Virus record (IMG/VR): IMGVR_UViG_3300025867_000005
Origin: a virus
Taxonomy: Duplodnaviria > Caudoviricetes
Strand: one strand, 5' to 3'
Length of the DNA: 64,000 nucleotides
Below the pieces are notes generated by a model, which worked only from the letters and a program-made list of their open reading frames with translations, had not been told where the DNA came from and did no database searches. Shown here one piece after another: positions 5,651-27,164 of the stretch; within the stretch, counting starts at the first letter, position 1; every line of letters starts with the position of its first letter. The translations under genes and the position numbers were made by a program.

Positions 5651-6463
5651 ATGAGGTGCAATATGGTAGAAAGAAGGTCATCAGTAGACAGATTTCTCAA
5701 AAAGTTTTCAGAAACTTTGGGCTTTGGACTTAACGATTTGGTAAGCTATGCCCCGACAGGACATAAGGTAATCGGGATAGTAGTAGATATCGATCCTAAG
5801 ATTAGGAAGATTTATGTTGATTGGGGTGGCTGTGGCAATATCCATCAACACGATCCGGAAGAATTGCAGATTACCATGCTTCAGGAAAAGGCTGTTAAGA
5901 ATAAGATGGCAAGTGTCAAAATCAAGAAAATCACGGCAGCGATGGTCGGAGACATAAGTACTACGGATTTCATCGATCCTGTTACTTCTGATTTATTGAA
6001 CAAGCAGTTCGCCGCAGAGCTTTCAAATTCAGCTTTTTACCGTTGTTGCGCATCTTGGTTTGGGAATAACGGCTATCCTGGCTTTGAAGCCTATTTCCTG
6101 CGTCAAGGAGACGGTGAAGCAGAACATGCGATGAAAGTCTATACCTTCTTGGCAGAAGCCGGTATACGCGTTGTATTCCCTGTTATCAACGATCAACAGA
6201 TTGCCACGGATTTGAAATCCATCATCAAACAGACATTGGTTAAAGAAACGGAAACCACAAAGAATTGGCAGATCATTTCCAAATCGGCAGAAACAGGAAA
6301 CAATGTTGCGGTAACGGAACTTTGCCAGTGGTTCATGAAGGAACAGATGGAAGAAGAATCAAGCATCACAACCCTTTATCAGAAAGTCATGAATCTTCCT
6401 CTTAGTGGCGGTTTGGAAACAATCGACATGCTTTTGAGAGAAAAAGATCCTATCGTAAAATAA
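5651..6463 (+). CDS. Ferritin-domain protein with an N-terminal SH3/KOW-like extension
   Basis: C-terminal ~165 aa: LNKQ..AEL....Y...ASWF...GF..YF..Q...EAEHAMK...E...WF.KEQ.EEE (FtnA-type ferroxidase ligands). True start may be ATG 5663. Confidence 0.85.
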   Translation: MRCNMVERRSSVDRFLKKFSETLGFGLNDLVSYAPTGHKVIGIVVDIDPKIRKIYVDWGGCGNIHQHDPEELQITMLQEKAVKNKMASVKIKKITAAMVGDISTTDFIDPVTSDLLNKQFAAELSNSAFYRCCASWFGNNGYPGFEAYFLRQGDGEAEHAMKVYTFLAEAGIRVVFPVINDQQIATDLKSIIKQTLVKETETTKNWQIISKSAETGNNVAVTELCQWFMKEQMEEESSITTLYQKVMNLPLSGGLETIDMLLREKDPIVK

Positions 6464-6476
6464 CAGGAGATTGAAA

Positions 6477-6743
6477 ATGGATATCCGCAAAGAACTTCTT
6501 TTTGTCGCCAAACTGATCAAAGCAAAGCCTGAGTACGAATACGCTTGGGACCCTGACCATAAGAATAAACCAAAAGGGGAAGGCTGGGAACAGACAGATG
6601 CCGGTTGGTCTAGGAATACGGGCAAAGAAGAAAAACCAGAAAAGTATTGGGAAGGGAAGAATAAAGAAGGCGAATACTATTACGATACCATTGAATCAGA
6701 AGGGGACGAAGGCGAAAAAGAAGAAGTACAGGATGAAGAATAA
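6477..6743 (+). CDS. Small leader-tagged protein (leader + WDP-H-GW module + acidic tail)
   Basis: MDIRKELLFVAKLIKA then YAWDPDHKNKPKGEGWEQTDAGWS; AGGAG RBS. Confidence 0.75.
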   Translation: MDIRKELLFVAKLIKAKPEYEYAWDPDHKNKPKGEGWEQTDAGWSRNTGKEEKPEKYWEGKNKEGEYYYDTIESEGDEGEKEEVQDEE

Positions 6744-6757
6744 GGAGTAATAAATAC

Positions 6758-8422
6758 ATGAATTTCGAAGCGATGATTTCCAAATTGGCGAATGATATTA
6801 TAACAGCAGAAACTAATTATGTCTGGGACCCGGAGCATAAGAAAAATCCAGGCAGCGGTTATCAGAAAACCGATAAGGGCTGGTCTAAATCAGACGGGAA
6901 AGGGGAAATAACGAAGACGCAACAGAAGAAGGTTCCTTCAGCCCCTGTGAAGCCGACTTCGACTCCTGATGTTTCAGGACATCCTGATATTCTAAAGTCT
7001 AAATCAGGAAAGCAAATCCCGAATAACAAAGACATTCTTGATGTCATTTACAACAACTATAACGATTTCAGCGAAGCAGAAAAAAACAACCTTTTGTCTT
7101 TTTATCGCCAAAAAGCGGATGCCTTGAGTGCTGAAGCGAAGAAACACTACAGTCACCCAGAAGTGTTCAAGAACCTTATCGGTCTAAATAATGAAACTCT
7201 TGATATCATAGAACTCCTGAAGAGCAAAGAAGGATATGATCAAAAGGGGAAAGACATAGAATTAACCAACAGGGTAATAGCCGCTAAAAACTCCAAGGAT
7301 TTCAAGATGGCACTTGGCAAGGTATCTAGCGCCTTCCCTGACTATACGACAGAAGAGGCAACAGTCAATTTCTTGTCGAACCCGAAGATGGCGAAGAATC
7401 TTAAAACTGAAGAACGCAAGGCTCTTCAGGAATACTTTGAAGCAAACAAGTCTGCTTTTGAAAATGAACTAAGTAAGGAACACAAGAATCTTCTAAAAGA
7501 CGGAAAAGGTGATAAGAAAACGATTGGATATCTTTCTGATGGAATCAAGGAATTTGATAAAGTCCTTTCACGGTTGTCTCCACTCTATCCTTCGTATCAA
7601 AAGCTTACGGATATGAAGAAATCAGGGCCGTTTCAGAAAGTCTATCAGTTTGTCAAGAATGTAAAGCCTGGTCCTGTTGCTGAACAAGAATTTATTGATG
7701 TCTTGGGAGAACCGACACATCTTAACACACTGACTTCAGAAGAGAAAAAGGCAATCTCCGATTTCTTCCAAATGAAGAAACAACTTTGGGCAGCCGACGC
7801 GAAGAAAAATCCCGATCTTCAAACTCTTGCAGAAGACGGTATCAAGAAGATGGATCAAATTATTTCCCTTGTCAATCCAAATACAAACAAGAAGGCACCT
7901 GACCCGTCTCAAGTTATGTCTCGTCTTTTCAAAGAACCGGAAATGATAAGTGTCGCTGATAAACCGAAGGTTATCCAGACGTATAAAAATTGGCTTGCAG
8001 CAAATAAGGATAAGAAGGACAAAGATACACAGGCTAAGGTTTCGGACGTAAGGCTTGCTGTCAAGATGTTGGAAGGCCCACGCTTCAAAAAAGTAGACCC
8101 GAAGCTTTCAGGAAACCTTATGTATCTTGTCAAAGACAATGACCTCGGGGATGAATTGCAGGAACTCGCTGGCTTTAAGGAAACCATCAAGAATCATCCT
8201 CAAATGTCTAACAAGGAATACAAGCAGAGGATAGATCAAGGAATGAAGCTTCCTAGAAGTCAGGCACAGCTTAAACAGGCTTTCATCATGAATATGAACC
8301 CGATGAACTACCCGGACATGCAGGCTTTCCAAGCCGCGAAACAAAGGGTTCAGAAAATGGATATCAATGATTTCGGTAAGCTTTTGGCAAGCCTTAACGC
8401 GGATGAAGAAGAAACGATTTAA
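6758..8422 (+). CDS. Large leader-tagged helical protein, putative head-internal/ejected protein
   Basis: ISKLANDIITA|E then YVWDPEHKKNPGSGYQKTDKGWS; 554 aa; AAGGAG RBS. Confidence 0.75.
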   Translation: MNFEAMISKLANDIITAETNYVWDPEHKKNPGSGYQKTDKGWSKSDGKGEITKTQQKKVPSAPVKPTSTPDVSGHPDILKSKSGKQIPNNKDILDVIYNNYNDFSEAEKNNLLSFYRQKADALSAEAKKHYSHPEVFKNLIGLNNETLDIIELLKSKEGYDQKGKDIELTNRVIAAKNSKDFKMALGKVSSAFPDYTTEEATVNFLSNPKMAKNLKTEERKALQEYFEANKSAFENELSKEHKNLLKDGKGDKKTIGYLSDGIKEFDKVLSRLSPLYPSYQKLTDMKKSGPFQKVYQFVKNVKPGPVAEQEFIDVLGEPTHLNTLTSEEKKAISDFFQMKKQLWAADAKKNPDLQTLAEDGIKKMDQIISLVNPNTNKKAPDPSQVMSRLFKEPEMISVADKPKVIQTYKNWLAANKDKKDKDTQAKVSDVRLAVKMLEGPRFKKVDPKLSGNLMYLVKDNDLGDELQELAGFKETIKNHPQMSNKEYKQRIDQGMKLPRSQAQLKQAFIMNMNPMNYPDMQAFQAAKQRVQKMDINDFGKLLASLNADEEETI

Positions 8423-8434
8423 AGGAGTACTGAA

Positions 8435-9292
8435 GTGAACTACAAATCAGAAATTTCAAAAATAGCAAAAATCATTATCGCAGATTCTGATTATGTTTAT
8501 GACCCCGAACATAAGAATAATCCTGGTGGTGGTTATCATCGTACAGAAAAGGGTTGGTCTAAACAAGACTGGAATGGGCAGACAGAAGTTTCTCCTGAAT
8601 CCGGTTCTTCTAAAAAAGAACCATTAAAAATAGACAACTGGGACCCAGCCGTATATGGAGGGTTTTGGGGATCATGGAATTCCACGCCAGCAGCAAGACA
8701 TTTTTTAGAATTCGGTGACGAAAGCGTTGTCAAAGATGAAAAATTCTATGATGAACTTTTTAACGGAAAACTTGGAATTAAAGAACTGCTAAAGAGAGTG
8801 GGAGATAGTTTGCAAGGGAAAGGTGAATATACAGAATTTGGATACACAAAGAAAGACATGATCGACTTGGGACAATTCGCCCTTTATGCTGCAAACAAAG
8901 CCCGCAAAGACGGTATCGACATCGACAAAATCGTATACGGCAAATCGGCCAATCCGGAAAAGAAACCAGAGACTTTTTCGGAAGAAAAGAAAATGAAATT
9001 GGTAAGGGAAATGCCGGGATATTGGTCGGGTTTGAACAAGCTTCAAAGGAACCGTTTAAGTTGGGATGACTTCCATACAAGAGTGATGGATAAATCTATT
9101 GACTTGACTTCAGAGGAAGCACTCTCGATGGCGGCGGTATTGAAGATAAAACAAGATTCTGCATTGAAACTCGCTGAATCTTATAAGAAAAGTGATAGTC
9201 CATTTGCAGGACGGGCAAGGATGATGTCAGAAAGAGAAGCAGAAAAACTTGGCGGGTATGCTGAAGACTTCAACAAGATTGCAAATCAATAA
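8435..9292 (+). CDS. Leader-tagged hypothetical protein
   Basis: EISKIAKIIIA|D then YVYDPEHKNNPGGGYHRTEKGWS; GTG start after AAGGAG. Confidence 0.75.
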   Translation: MNYKSEISKIAKIIIADSDYVYDPEHKNNPGGGYHRTEKGWSKQDWNGQTEVSPESGSSKKEPLKIDNWDPAVYGGFWGSWNSTPAARHFLEFGDESVVKDEKFYDELFNGKLGIKELLKRVGDSLQGKGEYTEFGYTKKDMIDLGQFALYAANKARKDGIDIDKIVYGKSANPEKKPETFSEEKKMKLVREMPGYWSGLNKLQRNRLSWDDFHTRVMDKSIDLTSEEALSMAAVLKIKQDSALKLAESYKKSDSPFAGRARMMSEREAEKLGGYAEDFNKIANQ

Positions 9293-9304
9293 GGAATAAC
9301 TGTC

Positions 9305-10171
9305 ATGTATTTCTGTAAAGCACCAAGGATTTATGTTTTAACGCGAAAGGAAAAAGAAACAGGGGTTTATGTCTGCCCCTTTTGCGGGAAAGTTTTGAAG
9401 AAAGGTTCTCTTTCGAAATCTGAAAAGCTTTTTCAATGTCGTACATGCGGGTTCAAGATAACGGGTAGAGACATCTTATCGGAATATCCGAATCAGAAAG
9501 TAAGTATTGACATTGGCATTGAAATTCAGAAGGTCGCAAAGGTCATTGTTTCAGAGACGAAAGAAGAAAAGGACCCATTTGGATTCGCCAAAAGCAAAGC
9601 CCATCAAATTTTTGAAAAAGCCAAAAAAGCAGACAACAACGTTTCTCAATGGGAAATCACGACAGAGAAGCAATCACCAGAATTATACAAGTTCAATGCC
9701 TTCCCACGGAAATCTGGAAATGATGCTGTTATTGCTATCGAAGTGACTAAAAGAAACCAAAATCTTTTAGGTAAAGAGATAGAATCTGTTACCTTTTCCA
9801 TTTTAGTAAAAGGCGGAAAAGAAGTTTTTAGCATACAGACTTCCAATATTTATGCGGTAAAATCACTTTTCGACAAAATTCTGAGGAAAGATTTCACGGA
9901 ATTTTTCTCTACGAAAACTGACAACAAGATGACGGAAGTCAAGAATTTCATCAAATCCAAGTTTCATCTTACCCCAGATGAAGAAGACAGTGATAGCCTT
10001 CATTACGCGACAAGAGATCACGGAGATGTAGAAGAAGAGACTCCGGGTAAAGAAGACATCCAGCTTATCAAGCAGGTCATTTCGGGAGTCAAGGCGAAAT
10101 TCAAAAACTTGGTATTGCGTCCAGAAATCGTAGATGAATGGGTACAGCTTGAAATAAAATTAGAAGGTTGA
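9305..10171 (+). CDS. Zn-ribbon protein with an internal copy of the leader motif
   Basis: CPFC...CRTC; EIQKVAKVIVS|E at aa 73-83. Confidence 0.7.
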   Translation: MYFCKAPRIYVLTRKEKETGVYVCPFCGKVLKKGSLSKSEKLFQCRTCGFKITGRDILSEYPNQKVSIDIGIEIQKVAKVIVSETKEEKDPFGFAKSKAHQIFEKAKKADNNVSQWEITTEKQSPELYKFNAFPRKSGNDAVIAIEVTKRNQNLLGKEIESVTFSILVKGGKEVFSIQTSNIYAVKSLFDKILRKDFTEFFSTKTDNKMTEVKNFIKSKFHLTPDEEDSDSLHYATRDHGDVEEETPGKEDIQLIKQVISGVKAKFKNLVLRPEIVDEWVQLEIKLEG

Positions 10172-10183
10172 TTGCCTATAAAA

Positions 10184-10190
10184 TTTGATA
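10184..10190 (+). promoter_or_regulatory. Putative phage late-promoter element TTTGATA
   Basis: Upstream of the prohead protease. Confidence 0.55.
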
Positions 10191-10219
10191 ACCTTACGTA
10201 TACCTAAACAAGAGGTTAT

Positions 10220-11218
10220 ATGAACACGAACAATTTTCCAAGGCATTTATCTGTAAAGAACAGAGAAACACTCCTTCATCCAGGCAGTGGGATTAAAGTT
10301 CAGAATGTCAAAATTCTAACGAATCCACGATATGAATGGGAAAGAATATGCAGGGGACGTACAAGAATCGCCCACAGCATTGATATCGACTGGAAGCGTT
10401 TCAACCTGAATGACTATATCTTCACACATGACTCCATCGTGTCGAGCGTAGAAACAGAAGCCAACGGATATTATATCAAGCCCATCTGTTCGAAGATCGT
10501 CAATTTAAACGGCAACGCGTGGACAAATCCCGTTCTTCTAGCGACATTCCGTACTTTCGTAGGTGGTTATAATTTCGAAGAACATGTTCAAATCCCAAGC
10601 CAAAGCAAAGGAATGATTCTTGATGCCGTTCTTCGTCCTTTTCAATACAGGGATGAAAAAGGCAATATCGCCAATGTCTATATCTGTGACATCCTCGTTG
10701 CCACATGTAAAAGCAATTGGGAACTGGTACAGGAAATACAAACAGGAAAGATGAGAACCTTGTCGATGGGAACCCAGTGCCGTTCCGTCCAATGTAGCCA
10801 TTGCGGTAAGATATTCAGAGATGATGAAGACAGTTGCGATCATATAAAGTACGAACTCGGACAGATGTTTGTCGATGAAAACGGAATCGAACGCATTACT
10901 GCTGAACTCTGCGGTTGCAGCATTTGGGATGCAATAAAGAAAGAATGGATAGGAGATCCGGAATCCAACACCTTTATTGAAGCCAGTTGGGTTAAACATC
11001 CCGCATATGTAGGAGCCGTTGTAAACCATTTCATCAATCCGAAGAATGTAAATCCTTCACTGTTTAAAGAAGCGTCTATCGAAGAATCCATTCAGGGATT
11101 GTTCAATGTCCGGGTTGCTGACAGATATGGGAGGTTGTCTTTGAATCTTCTCAGACAGAAACAGGAGATTGACAAAAGGGAAGGAATGATAAACAGAATC
11201 ATTTCGTCAAAGCATTAG
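10220..11218 (+). CDS. Prohead (capsid maturation) protease with Zn finger
   Basis: NxNGxAW, F.EH....KG.ILDA, I..G....LSMG (catalytic His/Ser pattern), CSHC...CDH; lies upstream of scaffold and capsid. Confidence 0.8.
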   Translation: MNTNNFPRHLSVKNRETLLHPGSGIKVQNVKILTNPRYEWERICRGRTRIAHSIDIDWKRFNLNDYIFTHDSIVSSVETEANGYYIKPICSKIVNLNGNAWTNPVLLATFRTFVGGYNFEEHVQIPSQSKGMILDAVLRPFQYRDEKGNIANVYICDILVATCKSNWELVQEIQTGKMRTLSMGTQCRSVQCSHCGKIFRDDEDSCDHIKYELGQMFVDENGIERITAELCGCSIWDAIKKEWIGDPESNTFIEASWVKHPAYVGAVVNHFINPKNVNPSLFKEASIEESIQGLFNVRVADRYGRLSLNLLRQKQEIDKREGMINRIISSKH

Positions 11219-11227
11219 GAGACAGAT

Positions 11228-11758
11228 ATGAACAGTAAAGACTTGACAAGGATAGCAAAACTTCTTATCGCGGATTACCGTTATGATCCTCGCCATGAAA
11301 ACAAACCACAGGGTCTAGGCTGGAAACAGACAGAAGGCGGATGGACGAACGTGTTGCACAGGATTAAGAAGACGGAACCGAAGGAAGTTGAACAAGAATC
11401 GGATGTCCCTGAAATAAAGGTCAAGAATTCCCCAGTCCCAGAAGTTTCTGAAAACAAAAAGAGGTTGTCTGTTCTGTTGGGGCAGGCCGGAACAAAAGGA
11501 TTGCTTGACAGAGATACGGAAGGTAAGGCTATAGTAGAACAGAAGGACATCGACAGGATTAATTCAATGCTTTATAAGTCAAGAGGGAATAGAGACAAGG
11601 TAAGAATGTATGTCGAAAATATGTCAAGCGCAATCACTAATCCTAAGAAAGCTGTTCGTAGAGGTCTTGCGGCTTTCCACGGATTGAAAGATGAATTCGG
11701 CAAAGAATTCGCTTGGGAAATGGCTTCAGTTTTCGTCGGCAAAGGATTAAGCCTGTAG
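11228..11758 (+). CDS. Leader-tagged hypothetical protein inside the head operon
   Basis: DLTRIAKLLIA|D then YRYDPRHENKPQGLGWKQTEGGWT. Confidence 0.75.
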   Translation: MNSKDLTRIAKLLIADYRYDPRHENKPQGLGWKQTEGGWTNVLHRIKKTEPKEVEQESDVPEIKVKNSPVPEVSENKKRLSVLLGQAGTKGLLDRDTEGKAIVEQKDIDRINSMLYKSRGNRDKVRMYVENMSSAITNPKKAVRRGLAAFHGLKDEFGKEFAWEMASVFVGKGLSL

Positions 11759-11999: not shown

Positions 12000-13520
12000 A
12001 TGTCACTTAAACGTTTAGCTGAAGCGATGGAAGGAATCGCCGACGAAGCAGAATCAAAGGAACTTGATCAGGTTCTTTCTGACTTCGGTGGTGATGACGG
12101 CGAAGCGGCTCCCGCTGCTGAAGCCGAAGAAACGGAAGAAGATAAAGACGAAGCGATTGTTGCCCGTCTTGCATCTGCTACGGATGATTTTGAAATTTCA
12201 GGAATCAATTCCGGTGATCAGGATGAATTTTCTCAGGTTCAGACTGTCGGACTTGGTAAGGAAGACAAAGCTGATTATGGAACTGTCGCGGAAGCCGCAA
12301 AGAAATATGCTTTCTGCGCACGTAAGCTTGCAAGTCTTGAAGTTGAAGCAAAGAAAGATCCTAATGGCAAGAAATATCTTTCTGCTATCGCATCAATGAC
12401 CCGTATCCTTGAACGTAGGGCCGCTGCACTTAAGGTCGCTGTTGCCGACAAGACTTCGTTTAGCGGAGACCTTGGCCATGACGGAACTCGTGATGAAGCG
12501 GAATACGGTGCCTATGACACCAGCAAACCGGCTATGGACGCTGAAATTCAGAGCACATCGGCTCCTTGGAAAACAGACAAGCATGATGGACTCGGTTTGG
12601 GCATTCCTAAACCAGAAGGCGAAGTAACCCGTGAAGCAAGTTCTAAGATCGCGGCTAACCAGTCAATCCGTTTGGCGGTTTGCTTGCTCGGTTCTAAGGC
12701 TCCTGAAGATATGATTCAGGCACAGGCTGGCGAATTCTTCGCACAGATGAAGCTTGCTAGCATCGAACGCGCTCTTAAACGTATCGCGGAAACCGAAGCT
12801 CTCTATGCGTCTGAAACCACAGCCGTTAATCCAGAAGTCGTTCCTGCTGGTCCTGTCACTACGGTTGAAGAAGCCGCAAAGGAAATCAGCGCATCCGCTG
12901 AAGCTCCCGTTTGTGAAAAGAAAGACGAAGTAAAGGAAGCTGCGGCAGAACTCCCTTCTCCTGAAGAAAAGAAAGAAGATGAGTTTACCGATGATGAAAA
13001 GAAGGAAATTGACGTGATGACCGCTTCAATCGTTGCCCGTCAGGCTAAAATGCGCGAAGCCGCACTTGCCAAAGCGAAGGCATTGATTGCCGCTGAAATT
13101 CCTGTCGTCGAAGAACCTGTCGTCGAAGCTCCTGTTGAAGCCGCACCTGCGGTTGTTACAGAAGAAAAACCGGTAGAAGCCGCTGTTGAAGCAGCTCCGG
13201 TTGTTCAAGACGAGATTGCCGAAGCCGTTGCTCCTGTTGAACCAGAAGTAGCGCCTGCGGAAGAACTTCCTGCTCAGGATGATGAGATTGACTTCTCTAC
13301 TTCTACAAGCGAAGACGCTGAAGGTATCCCGGAATTGGAAGCCTGCATTGATGTCCCGAAACCGGAAGTCAAGCCAGTCGTAGCTTCAAAAACTGCGGAA
13401 GCCAAGCCGAAATTCGCACAGACTCTTGGTGGCACACCTCGCCTTGCTTCAACGAAGAAGGGTGGCGACGTGATTCTCGAAAACCTCTGGGTAAAACCAG
13501 GTGAAGAGTTCTTTGGTTAA
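12000..13520 (+). CDS. Capsid scaffolding / internal core protein
   Basis: 506 aa, A/E/P-rich, lies between protease and capsid genes; many [KR]-x-A-[SA] sites (RLAS, KLAS, REAS, KEAA); strong AAGGAG RBS. Confidence 0.7.
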   Translation: MSLKRLAEAMEGIADEAESKELDQVLSDFGGDDGEAAPAAEAEETEEDKDEAIVARLASATDDFEISGINSGDQDEFSQVQTVGLGKEDKADYGTVAEAAKKYAFCARKLASLEVEAKKDPNGKKYLSAIASMTRILERRAAALKVAVADKTSFSGDLGHDGTRDEAEYGAYDTSKPAMDAEIQSTSAPWKTDKHDGLGLGIPKPEGEVTREASSKIAANQSIRLAVCLLGSKAPEDMIQAQAGEFFAQMKLASIERALKRIAETEALYASETTAVNPEVVPAGPVTTVEEAAKEISASAEAPVCEKKDEVKEAAAELPSPEEKKEDEFTDDEKKEIDVMTASIVARQAKMREAALAKAKALIAAEIPVVEEPVVEAPVEAAPAVVTEEKPVEAAVEAAPVVQDEIAEAVAPVEPEVAPAEELPAQDDEIDFSTSTSEDAEGIPELEACIDVPKPEVKPVVASKTAEAKPKFAQTLGGTPRLASTKKGGDVILENLWVKPGEEFFG

Positions 13521-14186: not shown

Positions 14187-15047
14187 ATGGATATCTCAAC
14201 AGCTTCAAAGTATCAGACCATCGCTAAGTACATCAAGACTGGCGAAGGCCGTTCCCGTATCGCGGCAAGCTTCACGCAGCCCCTGCGTCAGCGTCGTGAC
14301 TATCAGAGCGTCGGTCGTAGAGCCTTCTACGTCGAACAGCTTCTTGACGGTCAGCTCCCGATTTGGGATAAGGATGCCAATGTAACGGCATATGTCATCG
14401 GTGCGGAAGGACAGAACATCCAGTGTGTTCAGAAACCACCGCGTGTTTTCTTCGACTTGTTCGAAATCGCTTCAAATCCTGAAATCTCCATCACAACGAT
14501 CCGTGAAAAGCGCTTCGATGTTTTGGAACGTTCCCTTGACCTCGCCCGTAGCGCGATCATGGCACAGGAAGACCGCTATGTGTTCGCCACAATGGACGCT
14601 TTGGCGGCATCTGCTACCAACCCGAATCCGGTTATCCAGGTCATTGGTAACTTGACTTCTAACGTTTTGATTGACGCGAAAGCGGCTGTCGAACGTAACG
14701 ATATCAGGGTAGCGAATATCTTCATGAACGCAAAGGATTACAACGATCTTTTGAAGTTCGACCGTGACACCCTCAGCCCTGAGTACCAGACTCAGTTGCT
14801 TAAGAACGGCCTCATGGCCAACATCTGGGGAATCAACATCATCGTAAGCCGTATCGTCGCAGAAGGCGATGTCTATGTCTGCGGTGAACCGGAATTCTTC
14901 GGACGTATCCCCGTTCGTCAGGACCTCACCGTCCTTTCAGCGGATGATCCTCGTAACCGCATGGTCGGCTTCTCGGTCTTCGAAATGATCGGTTGCGGCT
15001 TGTGGAATCCGTTGGCAATGAGCAAGATTCAGATTACCCGCGTGTAA
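14187..15047 (+). CDS. Major capsid protein (HK97 fold)
   Basis: PLRQRRDY..VGRR.F.VE.L..G..P.WDKD, FEIASNP, I.AQED, IWG.NI.VS; position after scaffold/decoration; followed by a strong terminator. Confidence 0.85.
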   Translation: MDISTASKYQTIAKYIKTGEGRSRIAASFTQPLRQRRDYQSVGRRAFYVEQLLDGQLPIWDKDANVTAYVIGAEGQNIQCVQKPPRVFFDLFEIASNPEISITTIREKRFDVLERSLDLARSAIMAQEDRYVFATMDALAASATNPNPVIQVIGNLTSNVLIDAKAAVERNDIRVANIFMNAKDYNDLLKFDRDTLSPEYQTQLLKNGLMANIWGINIIVSRIVAEGDVYVCGEPEFFGRIPVRQDLTVLSADDPRNRMVGFSVFEMIGCGLWNPLAMSKIQITRV

Positions 15048-18764: not shown

Positions 18765-20495
18765 ATGTCGGAATCCATTTTTTTGAAAATATCTAAAATC
18801 GCCAAATTTCTTTCAGCCGATGGGAAATGGGTAAAGTTTAATTCAAAGTCTCAGAAGCAGGGTTGGAAAAGGAAGAAAGACGGCGGAGGATTTGAATACC
18901 GCTATCAAGACAACGATCCTAACAAAGAAAATAGTTCTGTTGAAAAAAAAGCAATTGAAGACTTAAAGAAAACTAGTGTATTCCGGGATATTGATAATTT
19001 CGGAGAAATTATTGATTCTAAACCAACAGGTAAAAAAGGTATATATCAAGTCACAATAAAACGGGGTTATAAAGAGAAATATGAAGTTGAAACTTCAGAT
19101 TCGGAACTTGGAGTCATGGGGATTAAGAACAAAATACTTGCCAATAGACTGTATAAAACAGCGAACGTTCTTCTCGGACCCGTCTTTCTTTCAGAATTCC
19201 AAGGGAAGCCAGCGATTTTCACAGAGAAGGAGGATACCAGCCTTGACACTCCTGAACTTAAAGAAAATGCTATCGAAACGTCATTCGGTGAAAACTTCCG
19301 TAAAGGATTTATTATTGACGTTTTGCTTGGTAACAATAACGTTCTTGGAAACAATTTCCAAAACGTAGAGATTGTTGGTGGTGTAGTCAGAAGGGATAAC
19401 AAACACACATTGCTATTCAGGGAAGGGGGTATTGACAGTCTTTCAGATCAAGCCGTAGAACTGTATGATTTCAGGGACAAAAACAAATACCCGCAGTTGG
19501 CAAAATTCTATTCAAAGATCAGAGATGATGAAATCATAAAGCAGATTTCAAAAACGGCGATAGCTCTGAATGATGATGTCTTAGCAGACATTGTTACAGA
19601 AATGTTCCCGTCTCCAGAAGAATCAGAGATAGCCAAAAAGTTAATAGATAAGCTAATCAAAAGAAAAAAATATTTGTTGGACTTTGCGAAAGTCAAGGCT
19701 GTTGAGATGATACAGGAAAAGGTTCTTAAGAGAAAGGAGAAATACATTGTCGGACCCGGTATTGTGGAAGAAAAGACGATGACGACAGCAGAAGCAAAGT
19801 CAATCCGCAACTATTCTGATACTGATTATATGCCTATAAACAAATATCTTCGTGGAGAATTAAATCATAATGAGATAAAGGAAACGCCATTTGAAACAGA
19901 AGTCGGAATCAAGGATGCTTGCAAGACGCTAGTTCAGGCTTTGCAGAAACTACCGGCACATGAAGGAATCGTTTATAGAGGTTCTGAAGTAGATGAAGCC
20001 AGCCTCATTTCCATTATGGGGATGAAGCCAGGTGATTCAATCTATATGAAGTCTTTCACCTCAACAAGTAAATCAGAATCTAACGCATTAGAATTCAGTA
20101 CTGATGTTTTGTTTGAAATCGAAAGTCGTACCGGTAGAGACATTTCACATATGAGTGAATATCCTACAGAAGAAGAAGTCATTATGTCACCTGATACTAG
20201 ATATGAAGTGAAGTCAATGGAGTTCGAACAAGAATATATCCGCCTGAAGCTCAAAGAACTTCTCCCAGAAGAAGGTAAAACAAGGTTGTCCGTCAACCTT
20301 AAGAAGAACAAAAAGATGGACCCGAATGAAGTCAGAAAGTTCCTTTTGAAGAATCCGAAGCTTACACGGAAACAACGTGAACGTATTATGCGGCTTAATC
20401 CGGATCAATTGATTAAAATCATTCTGGCAATATTCTCCAAGAAAGGCAACAAGGTAAAAGAAGAATCTAACAAGTTTACAGAAATCTTCATTTAG
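18765..20495 (+). CDS. ADP-ribosyltransferase (VIP2/Alt-like, R-S-E) with a degenerate kinase-like domain; leader-tagged
   Basis: INKYLRG, VYRG, FTSTS, YPTEEEVIM; N-terminal ISKIAKFLSA|D. Confidence 0.85.
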   Translation: MSESIFLKISKIAKFLSADGKWVKFNSKSQKQGWKRKKDGGGFEYRYQDNDPNKENSSVEKKAIEDLKKTSVFRDIDNFGEIIDSKPTGKKGIYQVTIKRGYKEKYEVETSDSELGVMGIKNKILANRLYKTANVLLGPVFLSEFQGKPAIFTEKEDTSLDTPELKENAIETSFGENFRKGFIIDVLLGNNNVLGNNFQNVEIVGGVVRRDNKHTLLFREGGIDSLSDQAVELYDFRDKNKYPQLAKFYSKIRDDEIIKQISKTAIALNDDVLADIVTEMFPSPEESEIAKKLIDKLIKRKKYLLDFAKVKAVEMIQEKVLKRKEKYIVGPGIVEEKTMTTAEAKSIRNYSDTDYMPINKYLRGELNHNEIKETPFETEVGIKDACKTLVQALQKLPAHEGIVYRGSEVDEASLISIMGMKPGDSIYMKSFTSTSKSESNALEFSTDVLFEIESRTGRDISHMSEYPTEEEVIMSPDTRYEVKSMEFEQEYIRLKLKELLPEEGKTRLSVNLKKNKKMDPNEVRKFLLKNPKLTRKQRERIMRLNPDQLIKIILAIFSKKGNKVKEESNKFTEIFI

Positions 20496-21017: not shown

Positions 21018-22766
21018 ATGTTTTTAACACAATGTCTTATCAAAATCGCCAAAATAATCATTTCAGATGAGAAATGGGTCAAGTTTGAATCCGATTCAGA
21101 AAAACAGGGATGGAAGAGAAAAAAACCTGAAGGAGGGTATGAATACCGATATCAAGAGAAAGACCCTAACTTAGAGACGACTAAAGAAAAAACGGAAGGA
21201 CTGCCCAAAGAAATAGCAGAACTTGAATCTTTAAGAGCGATTCCAAAGTATGTCGGGGATGAATGGTTTCACAATATTAAAAGCGTTGATAAATTAGGTG
21301 GCAGCACCGGCGCTGTGAAGGTTGTGACAGAAAATACCTTCGGAACCGTAAATGAAATGGTCGTGAAAACATATGAAAACAATGGCGGCATTAATCAGAT
21401 CAAGAACGAATATCTTGCCAACAGTCTTTATCGTCAGTTAAATGTCAGTGTTCCAGAGACATATGTCGGATATTACAAAGGCAAACCCGCTCTAATCACG
21501 AAGTTTTTGCATGGTAAAGAAGCGCAAATAGAAAACGATAGAGGCATTCTCAAAGGATTCGTTGCTGACGCCTGGCTTGCCAACTGGGATTCTATAGGGC
21601 TGTCTGGAGATAACGTGTTGTATTCCTTCGGCAACACGTATAGAATCGATAATGGCGGTGCGTTGCTGTTTCGGGCACAAGGAGAACCAAAGGGTAACGC
21701 TTTTGGGGATGAAGTAACAGAACTTGATAGCCTTAGAAGTCCTGAAATTAATGTGATGACAGCAAAAGCTTTTGATCAGATAAAAGATTCTGACATCATG
21801 AAACAAGCAATGGAACTTGAAATAAAGATGACAGATGAAAAAATCAGGTCAGTGGTAGAATCTGTCTATAATTCAGATCAAGAAGCGGACTTTGCTAAGA
21901 AACTTTCTGATAGACTGATCAATCGTAAAAAATACATTATTTCTTACGCTAAAAAGTTGGCGATTAAGCGGATTCAAGACAATGTCTTGAAAAGAGAAGC
22001 CCGTTATGTCGTCGGAGAACCGAGTGGAAAAAAGATAACTGTCACTGATAATAAAACAATAAGAGACTATACATCATTAGGTTTCATGGAAATAAACAAG
22101 TATTTGAGAGGAAAAATAGATGATCCTTCAGATGAACCCAAATTTCGTAAAAAAGCCTCTAATCTTGTTACAAGTTTGAAAAAACTACAACCTTATACCG
22201 GTAAGGTTTATCGCGGATCTCACTTGGATGACGCGACAAAACTCGTTATGGCGACAATGAAGCCAGGTGATTTGATTTACATGAAGGCGTTCACTTCTAC
22301 TAGTAAATCAGCATCAAAAGCGGAGCAATTCACTTCAGATGTAAATTTTGAAATCGAAAGTCTAACGGGAAGAGAAGTAGTTGCTTATAGTAAGTATCCT
22401 ACAGAAGAAGAAGTTATTATGTCGCCTGATACCAGATATGAAATCACAGATATTCAAATAACCCCAGATCCGTATTTGGGAAATGCGTTAATCAGAATCA
22501 AGATGAAGGAATTACTTCCTGCACAGAGAGAGACAAAGCTTCCTGTTAACATGAGGAAGAAAGAACCTTCCGCGAATGATTTAAAGGATTTTCTTTTGAA
22601 GAATCCAAAACTTACGCAGAAACAAAGAGAAAGGATTATGCGCCTTCCTCTTGAAGACTTGAAGAAACTTGTTCTTATGATGTTCGCACACGGGAAGAGA
22701 AACCGTGTCGTCAACGATGATGTTACAGAAGAACAAAGCGGAAAGTTCACAGAAGTTTTTATTTAA
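21018..22766 (+). CDS. HipA/PI3K-like kinase + ADP-ribosyltransferase; leader-tagged
   Basis: GGSTGA, VVK, NEYLAN, DAWLANWD, DN, RIDNGG; VYRG, FTSTS, PTEEEV; N-terminal LIKIAKIIIS|D. Confidence 0.85.
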   Translation: MFLTQCLIKIAKIIISDEKWVKFESDSEKQGWKRKKPEGGYEYRYQEKDPNLETTKEKTEGLPKEIAELESLRAIPKYVGDEWFHNIKSVDKLGGSTGAVKVVTENTFGTVNEMVVKTYENNGGINQIKNEYLANSLYRQLNVSVPETYVGYYKGKPALITKFLHGKEAQIENDRGILKGFVADAWLANWDSIGLSGDNVLYSFGNTYRIDNGGALLFRAQGEPKGNAFGDEVTELDSLRSPEINVMTAKAFDQIKDSDIMKQAMELEIKMTDEKIRSVVESVYNSDQEADFAKKLSDRLINRKKYIISYAKKLAIKRIQDNVLKREARYVVGEPSGKKITVTDNKTIRDYTSLGFMEINKYLRGKIDDPSDEPKFRKKASNLVTSLKKLQPYTGKVYRGSHLDDATKLVMATMKPGDLIYMKAFTSTSKSASKAEQFTSDVNFEIESLTGREVVAYSKYPTEEEVIMSPDTRYEITDIQITPDPYLGNALIRIKMKELLPAQRETKLPVNMRKKEPSANDLKDFLLKNPKLTQKQRERIMRLPLEDLKKLVLMMFAHGKRNRVVNDDVTEEQSGKFTEVFI

Positions 22767-26807: not shown

Positions 26808-27164
26808 ATGGACTACAAAACAGAATTGATGAAAATAGCGAAACTGATTAAGGCTGAAGAAACAGGAATTGAATATACCGAGAAGAATAGCAAAGATCAC
26901 AATTTCAAATACAAGGCAGATACGATCAGGGTTTACGACAATCCTAATCAGTTAAAGCGTTTTACCGCCGTTATTACCGGTAGGGAATGGGATGAGCCTG
27001 GAAGTACCGACAAGTCTCTAATTCGGTTTGACATGAATGGTAAGACGGTTTTCGCTACTGGCAAGGAAGATCAGAAGCTTGGTAAACCCGTGGCTTGGAA
27101 AAGCATCCCTGCGGCGGTACAGAAGAAAGTTTTAAATCAGCTATCCGGCAAATGGGAAGAATAA
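26808..27164 (+). CDS. Leader-tagged hypothetical protein
   Basis: MDYKTELMKIAKLIKA|E; AGGAG RBS. Confidence 0.75.
   Translation: MDYKTELMKIAKLIKAEETGIEYTEKNSKDHNFKYKADTIRVYDNPNQLKRFTAVITGREWDEPGSTDKSLIRFDMNGKTVFATGKEDQKLGKPVAWKSIPAAVQKKVLNQLSGKWEE

Follow-up and report, generated by a model that had tools for sequence, protein, structure and literature searches.

We describe here a 28-residue aromatic mini-domain, the module, that lies directly behind a common amphipathic leader in four proteins encoded beside the head genes of a giant phage. The genes lie in a stretch of 64,000 nucleotides (the window), corresponding to bases 52571-116570 of the 304,025-base IMG/VR virus record IMGVR_UViG_3300025867_000005, which is rated complete. 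The module is undescribed within the libraries and papers searched. We favor tentatively, at somewhat less than an even chance, the view that it is the second half of a two-part tag of ~50 residues on proteins that are loaded into the capsid and reach the host along with the DNA. Detailed knowledge of which proteins enter the capsid and are ejected is limited to a few model phages with one-part tags; here, the module sits between a putative loading helix and exchangeable enzymes that resemble tools of host takeover or counter-defence.

The module, its genes and its family

A six-frame regular-expression scan of the window with the motif Y-x-[YW]-D-P-x-H-x3-P-(x)-G-x-G-[WY]-x2-T-x2-G-W returned exactly four open reading frames (ORFs), all on the + strand. 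They are the four proteins (starting at 6477, 6758, 8435 and 11228) in which an earlier reading, made from the letters of this DNA alone (the sequence-only reading), had placed the module right behind the leader:

6477..6743, + strand: m90, 88 residues from its ATG; leader 6477-6533, module 6540-6611, acidic tail
6758..8422, + strand: m554, 554 residues; leader 6758-6811, module 6818-6886, polar linker, helical repeat body, conserved C-terminal tail
8435..9292, + strand: m285, 285 residues; leader 8435-8485, module 8492-8560, orphan payload
11228..11758, + strand: m176, 176 residues; leader 11228-11275, module 11276-11347, payload; directly after the protease gene

The first Tyr of the module is residue 22, 21, 20 and 17 of these proteins, respectively, and downstream of the module, where the sequence-only reading had them diverge completely, the four sequences indeed do not align. 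The coding DNA of the four module copies is only ~66% identical, which marks them as old paralogues whose protein sequence was conserved, rather than as a recent repeat. A separate Shine-Dalgarno-like AGGAG/GGAG precedes each of the genes, and the ORF at 6477 has an alternative TTG start at 6471. m90 is identical to the cluster representative P0006, while orthologues of m176 are found in P0078 and at L005:8946-9482 (loci in our comparison are given as an L number with coordinates).

A scan of the whole genome added two module genes outside the window, distant from the head genes, for a total of six copies in which ten columns (Y, D, P, H, P, G, G, T, G and W) are invariant:

L003:8092-9090: leaderless module protein, 332 residues, with the module at the very start
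L004:8388-9248: 286 residues; N-terminal extension, degenerate leader, module and SAM-lyase-like domain (PF23780, 34.7 bits, above the cut-off)

The leaderless protein belongs to a family of eight orthologues with 65-92% identity. The seven beyond that in L003 all begin M-x-[D/N]-Y...Y-D-P, and thus the leaderless state is not a slip of annotation.

To find further members, we ran an exhaustive search of 1.84 billion representative proteins with a profile of 34 positions built from nine module copies. At E <= 0.001 it returned 262 protein clusters, which excludes chance similarity, and 14 of these reach E <= 1e-10; the counts of length, position and payload given here cover the best 150 of the 262 clusters. 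Module-bearing proteins range from 34 to 1054 residues (median 275), and the module begins between residues 13 and 45 in 124 of the 150, at or before residue 12 in 10 and further in in 16. A match to the leader profile ends within 14 residues upstream of the module in 100 of 163 module copies, many others have a weaker leader by eye, and most internal or C-terminal copies also have a leader-like helix in front. All ten clusters whose source we looked up are metagenomic, and three of them have source names: 'HEAT repeat domain-containing', 'PGDYG domain-containing' and 'hypothetical'.

An alignment of 59 short members revealed one continuous conserved unit of ~50 residues, which starts with a helix that has a near-invariant Ala and a hydrophobic position every three to four residues, followed by one or two acidic residues and then by the module. 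Within the module, Y, P, T, G and W are invariant, D, P, H and G are nearly invariant, four or five acidic positions are conserved, and several Lys are conserved as well. The mean charge of the module is +0.7; the 30 residues behind it are 78% polar, with mixed Lys and Glu and a net charge of +1.5, and a polar tether of 30-60 residues links the module to the payload.

The sequence-only reading allowed that the module might map to a known domain of unrelated function, and no catalogued domain matches it. No family in Pfam, PHROGs, NCBIfam or PADLOC covers the module region, a PDB sequence profile search yielded nothing below E 0.27, and the ESM Atlas gave no usable match. Among 50,697 GenBank phage records, tblastn found no match to a consensus-like member, nor to the bare module at E <= 5, so that no phage isolate could be linked to the family, and the module profile had no match in LR745208.1, Tunturi_5 or phage G. 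A term search turned up nothing on such a module in a broad comparative study of jumbo phages (PMC7824862). At minimum, the module is a new domain family that deserves a database entry, on at least 262 clusters of uncultured giant phages. Neither WW and choline-binding hairpins, which share a superficial likeness of motif, nor other catalogued domains gave a significant profile or sequence match. We dropped a Sec-type signal peptide, as the leader is charged and amphipathic, and an Asp-Pro autoproteolytic site like GDPH, as the spacing differs and we found no support for it.

We modeled residues 1-62 of m285 with AlphaFold2 (59 sequences), which predicted a helix at residues 3-16 and a hairpin-like sheet with strands at 20-22, 35-36 and 40-42; the mean predicted local distance difference test score (pLDDT) was 87-88 over residues 21-40, and the tail was disordered. 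The model of the leaderless 332-residue protein has the same strands at pLDDT 72-79, followed by a low-confidence linker; its mean pLDDT is 50.7 overall, and the fold of its payload is unusable. Since the same hairpin is predicted with and without a leader, the module looks like an autonomous mini-fold. Searches with the module model gave a best E-value of 9.3 (Foldseek against the PDB) and no Z >= 2 (VIA-align against 48,161 chains).

One member, P0003 (1054 residues), has twelve Cys-flanked hairpin repeats that match the module's second half (P-x-G-x-x-W-x-K-T-x-x-G-W). A zinc-ribbon-like hairpin may be the ancestor of the module, or the module may mimic one.

Payloads, head genes and relatives

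The sequence-only reading also proposed a swappable payload, as in polymorphic toxin cassettes, and this proposal is well supported, both by arrays of paralogues and by the C-terminal domains of the family. A Pfam scan of the 150 proteins found 21 families behind the tag:

LRV repeat: 43 proteins
LRV_2 repeat: 32 proteins
HEAT repeat: 25 proteins
SAM lyase: 3 proteins
ART-PolyVal: 2 proteins
Topoisomerase IB: 2 proteins
PI3/PI4-kinase-like: 2 proteins
Phage lysozyme, zeta toxin, RelA/SpoT and others: 1 protein each

The ADP-ribosyltransferase (ART), zeta toxin, RelA/SpoT, topoisomerase IB, lysozyme and SAM lyase payloads fit injected effectors. Many members are short and consist of leader, module and charged tail, with nothing more. 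The module proteins of the window have no enzymatic Pfam domain, and m554 matches no Pfam, PHROG or NCBIfam family. The C-terminal tail of m554 (~65-70 residues, 8210-8419) is also found at the extreme C-terminus of ~25 of the 150 module-bearing clusters; with phmmer (E <= 0.01), no link emerged between this tail and the two ARTs of the window.

A similar arrangement reportedly exists in the MuF-domain polymorphic toxins of temperate phages, which Jamet and colleagues are said to have described in 2017 as joining a constant head-associated N-terminus to varied C-terminal toxin or enzyme domains. The MuF domain is a catalogued domain of ~300 residues. The module proteins likewise have a constant N-terminal part and varied C-terminal domains, but Pfam found no match to Phage_Mu_F in the window proteins or in the 150 family members. 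The polyvalent proteins of phages and conjugative elements (PMC7824862 and its reference 100) are very large and carry many enzymatic domains, from which the module proteins of the window, with 88-554 residues, differ; 2 of the 150 relatives carry ART-PolyVal.

The four module genes of the window flank the gene for the prohead protease, and genes for scaffold-like, decoration-like and HK97-fold capsid proteins lie just downstream:

10220..11218, + strand: prohead (head maturation) protease (phrog_18299, E 9.9e-13)
12000..13520, + strand: scaffold-like protein, acidic and Ala/Glu-rich, assigned by position and composition
14187..15047, + strand: HK97-fold major capsid protein, phage G type (PF05065, E 5.3e-06; phrog_2522, E 4.7e-49)

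Among GenBank phages, the nearest capsid proteins by tblastn are those of LR745208.1, an uncultured 485-kb phage (55.6%), the Tunturiibacter phage Tunturi_5 (43.2%) and Bacillus phage G (35.6%).

For the genomic context of the module we drew on 16 metagenome loci, 6 IMG/VR loci and, from contigs of metagenome-assembled genomes, 5 more. Module genes lie within head modules in three independent lineages, represented by the window, by L005 and L042, and by L040, so the association with head modules that the sequence-only reading expected of homologues is borne out there. In the near-identical relative (L005/L042), the orthologues of the 88- and 554-residue proteins are fused into a protein of 397 residues with two tandem modules (L005:5830-7023), and the orthologue of the 285-residue protein gene is missing from L005; gain, loss and fusion between these close kin are cassette-like. 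In L040, whose protease (L040:1933-2889) and capsid protein are 51% and 66% identical to those of the window, two module genes directly follow the protease gene, as one does in the window, and a third follows the capsid gene; the scaffold-like protein of the window is 32% identical to that encoded at L040:5074-6504, and the gene order is alike. Elsewhere, module genes occur as arrays, four in a row in L032 and two each in L036, L028 and L026. A 183-kb contig in a Victivallaceae bin has the same capsid type and three module ORFs, and contigs of a phage near this one, with seven matches, lie in a Paludibacteraceae bin. On a 187-kb metagenome contig, a gene for leader, module and LRV repeats (L030:9983-10540) has an open frame only when TAG codes for Gln; it has four TAGs, one of them where a homologue has Gln, and the contig is a stop-codon-recoded huge phage with the same tag family.

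The leader is found on many proteins besides those with the module. We compared 80 IMG/VR loci around capsid genes 57-67% identical to the window capsid gene, and the leader profile had 59 matches of at least 9 bits in 22 of 82 capsid-gene loci, compared to none in ORFs that were reversed, shuffled or taken from the opposite strand; around the capsid gene of one relative, ten genes carry the leader. Of these 59 matches, ~45 start within 6 residues of a Met, and ~9 end within 2 residues of the C-terminus of small acidic scaffold-like proteins (among them L070:4017-4376, L063:7234-7578, L051:241-567, L069:4771-5154 and L066:4391-4573). From the end of those scaffold-like genes to the capsid gene downstream, the distance is 2.3-2.7 kb, matching the position of the 176-residue module gene in the window. 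A helix that can be placed N-terminally on cargo and C-terminally on scaffold-like proteins is as expected of a peptide that docks to the capsid interior. In the genome studied here, the leader profile and a motif scan together identified at least 10 leader-bearing ORFs, some without any module. Those in the window that lack the main module include:

18765..20495, + strand: ART (PF01129, 3.7e-16; PF03496, 8.4e-16); leader and alternative basic aromatic module (18825-18923)
21018..22766, + strand: second ART (PF01129, 2e-13); leader and alternative module (21072-21170)
26808..27164, + strand: protein of 118 residues with leader only and no module (leader-profile match, 12.7 bits)

Both ARTs have the same leader as the module proteins, followed, as the sequence-only reading had noticed, by a different aromatic/Gly module, which is basic. 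These comparisons of sequence support leader and module as two separable parts.

Candidate roles for the module

In the tentatively favored reading, the tag would consist of amphipathic leader helix, acidic junction, aromatic beta-hairpin mini-domain and polar tether, followed by the exchangeable payload. Judging from their position and strand, the module genes would be expressed together with the head genes. In analogy to the T4 capsid-targeting sequence, to the P1 DarB signal and to scaffolds and proteases, which bind the capsid through C-terminal tails, the leader helix would dock the protein to the interior of the assembling head, and the prohead protease would then probably cut at the [A/S]-[D/E] junction. 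In the last and least certain step, the freed N-terminal module could serve as a handle, keeping the tethered payload attached to a conserved partner within the filled head or at its exit. A protein surface seems a likelier partner than DNA, and our best guess is that the module, as a protein handle, keeps cargo in the filled head or orders it there. If this reading holds, the tag provides a sequence handle with which to list the injected arsenal of these giant phages from metagenomes, as well as a compact two-part candidate for loading foreign proteins into large capsids.

The junction itself, where the sequence-only reading had put a putative cleavage site, suggests where such a cut might fall. 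By eye, most leaders of this genome end in [A/S]-(x)-[D/E], which is exactly where the leaderless family starts; the acidic junction and the leaderless start at the same place fit a cut, probably by the prohead protease, that would free the module as N-terminus.

Known systems provide parallels to each part of this reading. The T4 capsid-targeting sequence on IPI-III and Alt is a one-part signal of ~10 residues (Mullaney and Black 1996, as summarized in PMC9024508 and PMC10052503). As in T4, a short N-terminal peptide is common here to unrelated head-region proteins, including an ADP-ribosyltransferase, encoded beside the prohead protease, and the leader is in this sense a shared peptide of the T4 type, occurring on the four module proteins, the two ARTs, the 118-residue protein and others. 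The peptide here is likely a loading tag as well, with putative removal by the protease. The two systems differ in that the tag here comprises a helix of ~18 residues, a separate folded module of 28 residues and a tether, and in that the window protease is not of the gp21 type by Pfam, only phrog_18299 'head maturation protease' matching it. [quoted passage not shown] In giant phages, N-terminal propeptides are removed from ejected head proteins, and the host-delivered head proteins of phiKZ and SPN3US also form paralogue families that the prohead protease cuts after an acidic residue (PMC10052503); their propeptides, however, are 20-254 residues long with no shared portable module, and the capsid lineage also differs. 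The tag system works like the T4 and P1 signals, the giant-phage propeptides and the MuF logic, yet it is a member of none of these.

Several results weigh against this reading. Two of the six genome copies, which represent two conserved module families, one leaderless and one with a degenerate leader, lie among non-structural genes. The module was absent from 79 of the 80 head-gene loci compared, the sole positive being the near-identical record, and five related records of 114-619 kb have no module in the sequence searched, although several use the leader; thus, the module is accessory, and the loading system needs none. The two-part address of the sequence-only reading stands in that leader and module are separable, but the module is a dispensable part of it among these relatives. 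Moreover, the leader-only proteins of relatives have no fixed cleavage motif behind the helix. The window protease matched no Pfam protease family at E <= 0.1 and no PDB sequence, so that the specificity of the T4 or phiKZ enzymes is not transferable to it. Finally, the packaging steps are ones that we infer for all module members.

Some of these same results point instead to the main rival, in which the module is a host-directed adaptor that carries the payload to a conserved target in the cell (nucleic acid, envelope or a machine), while the leader alone handles packaging. The leaderless family is kept at the identity given above among RNA-ligase-like, NUDIX-like and other non-structural genes, as seen around L003, another module family is joined to the SAM-lyase-like domain, and the relatives' loading system works without the module; the predicted ability of the module to fold alone, with a tether that separates it from the payload, would also suit an adaptor. 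We nevertheless consider this unlikely, since four of the six genome copies, and three more in L040, lie in the head module, and since the many members made up of leader, module and short charged tail have nothing to deliver. Furthermore, with contigs binned with very different bacteria, the target would have to be nearly universal.

A second rival questions the cut. Encapsulin cargo-loading peptides are short docking peptides on a flexible linker that occur at either end of the cargo and bind an HK97-fold shell. Leader and module might similarly be one uncleaved, position-independent docking unit, in which the module strengthens or specifies docking. Units of leader and module do occur internally and at the C-terminus as well as at the N-terminus, with the long polar tether behind them, and the leader alone closes the scaffold-like proteins of relatives; the lack of a strict cleavage motif after leader-only helices is also as this proposal would have it. 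The neighbouring ferritin-like gene of the window recalls classical encapsulin cargo. This phage, however, is tailed and has a protease, a scaffold and a portal, it shares no sequence likeness with encapsulin systems, and docking to the shell is putative. Since leaderless families retain the module alone, and since the regularly acidic junction at which leaderless proteins begin fits cutting better, we regard an uncleaved unit as improbable.

Returning to a cleaved tag, the module might have a more specific role as a second-stage sorting signal, which would be exposed after removal of the leader and would mark internal proteins for holding on the exit path and for ejection through the tail with the DNA. 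If true, no portable 'eject me' signal would have been defined earlier for the cargo of phage capsids, and we hold this role to be distinctly doubtful.

The sequence-only reading had suggested DNA binding or ejection as the role of the module. With DNA binding, cargo would be held on the packaged genome and would leave with it. The aromatic residues, the conserved Lys, the Lys-rich tails of many short members and the strongly basic character of the alternative ART module would accord with this idea, but it finds little support in the sequence of the main module. The near-neutral mean charge and the conserved acidic positions argue against plain DNA binding, the residues that follow mix Lys with Glu, and neither Foldseek, VIA-align nor the PDB profile search found a likeness to any solved DNA-binding fold; thus, we think it very unlikely. 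As to similarity that is compositional or due to recent local duplication without function, we found no support beyond the shortness and Gly/Lys-richness of the copies, and it is refuted by the existence of 262 independent clusters in which Y, D, P, H, P, G, T, G and W do not vary, by the divergence of the copies in DNA, and by the retention of the module in frame in the TAG-recoded phage.

Further leader-bearing genes and neighbouring features

Two loci of the same genome outside the window extend the range of proteins behind the leader. A third ART-type basic module lies behind the leader of an unrelated 248-residue protein (L122:609-1355), and an ORF of 65 residues (L123:525-722) has the leader followed only by a G-W start. 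A circular permutation between the main and ART-type modules, plausible by eye, was considered and dropped.

Just 5' of the protease gene, a leader-like helix lies inside another protein of the window, which has a homologue at the equivalent place in L040:

9305..10171, + strand: zinc-ribbon protein with leader-like helix at residues ~73-85

In a 181-kb IMG/VR record (G003) that is module-bearing and only 51% complete, searches for protease and capsid found none. It encodes a CCA-adding enzyme with a leader (L022:11627-13162) and an adjoining protein of 440 residues (L022:14465-15787) with two leader and module units, one internal and one at the very C-terminus.

The genome also has a second, partial capsid-protein-like ORF of ~200 residues (L002, G000:C1:203850-204113; 36% identity over 85 residues), which lies ~5 kb upstream of the SAM-lyase-like module gene and is kept in relatives (L006:2904-3509, G008:C194). 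The ferritin-like protein of the window (5651-6463) has an SH3-like N-terminal domain, and in other phages this domain also precedes leader, module and LRV repeats (P0039, P0053, P0124 and L130:5029-5859). The SH3-like domain may add a third, accessory element to the tag system.

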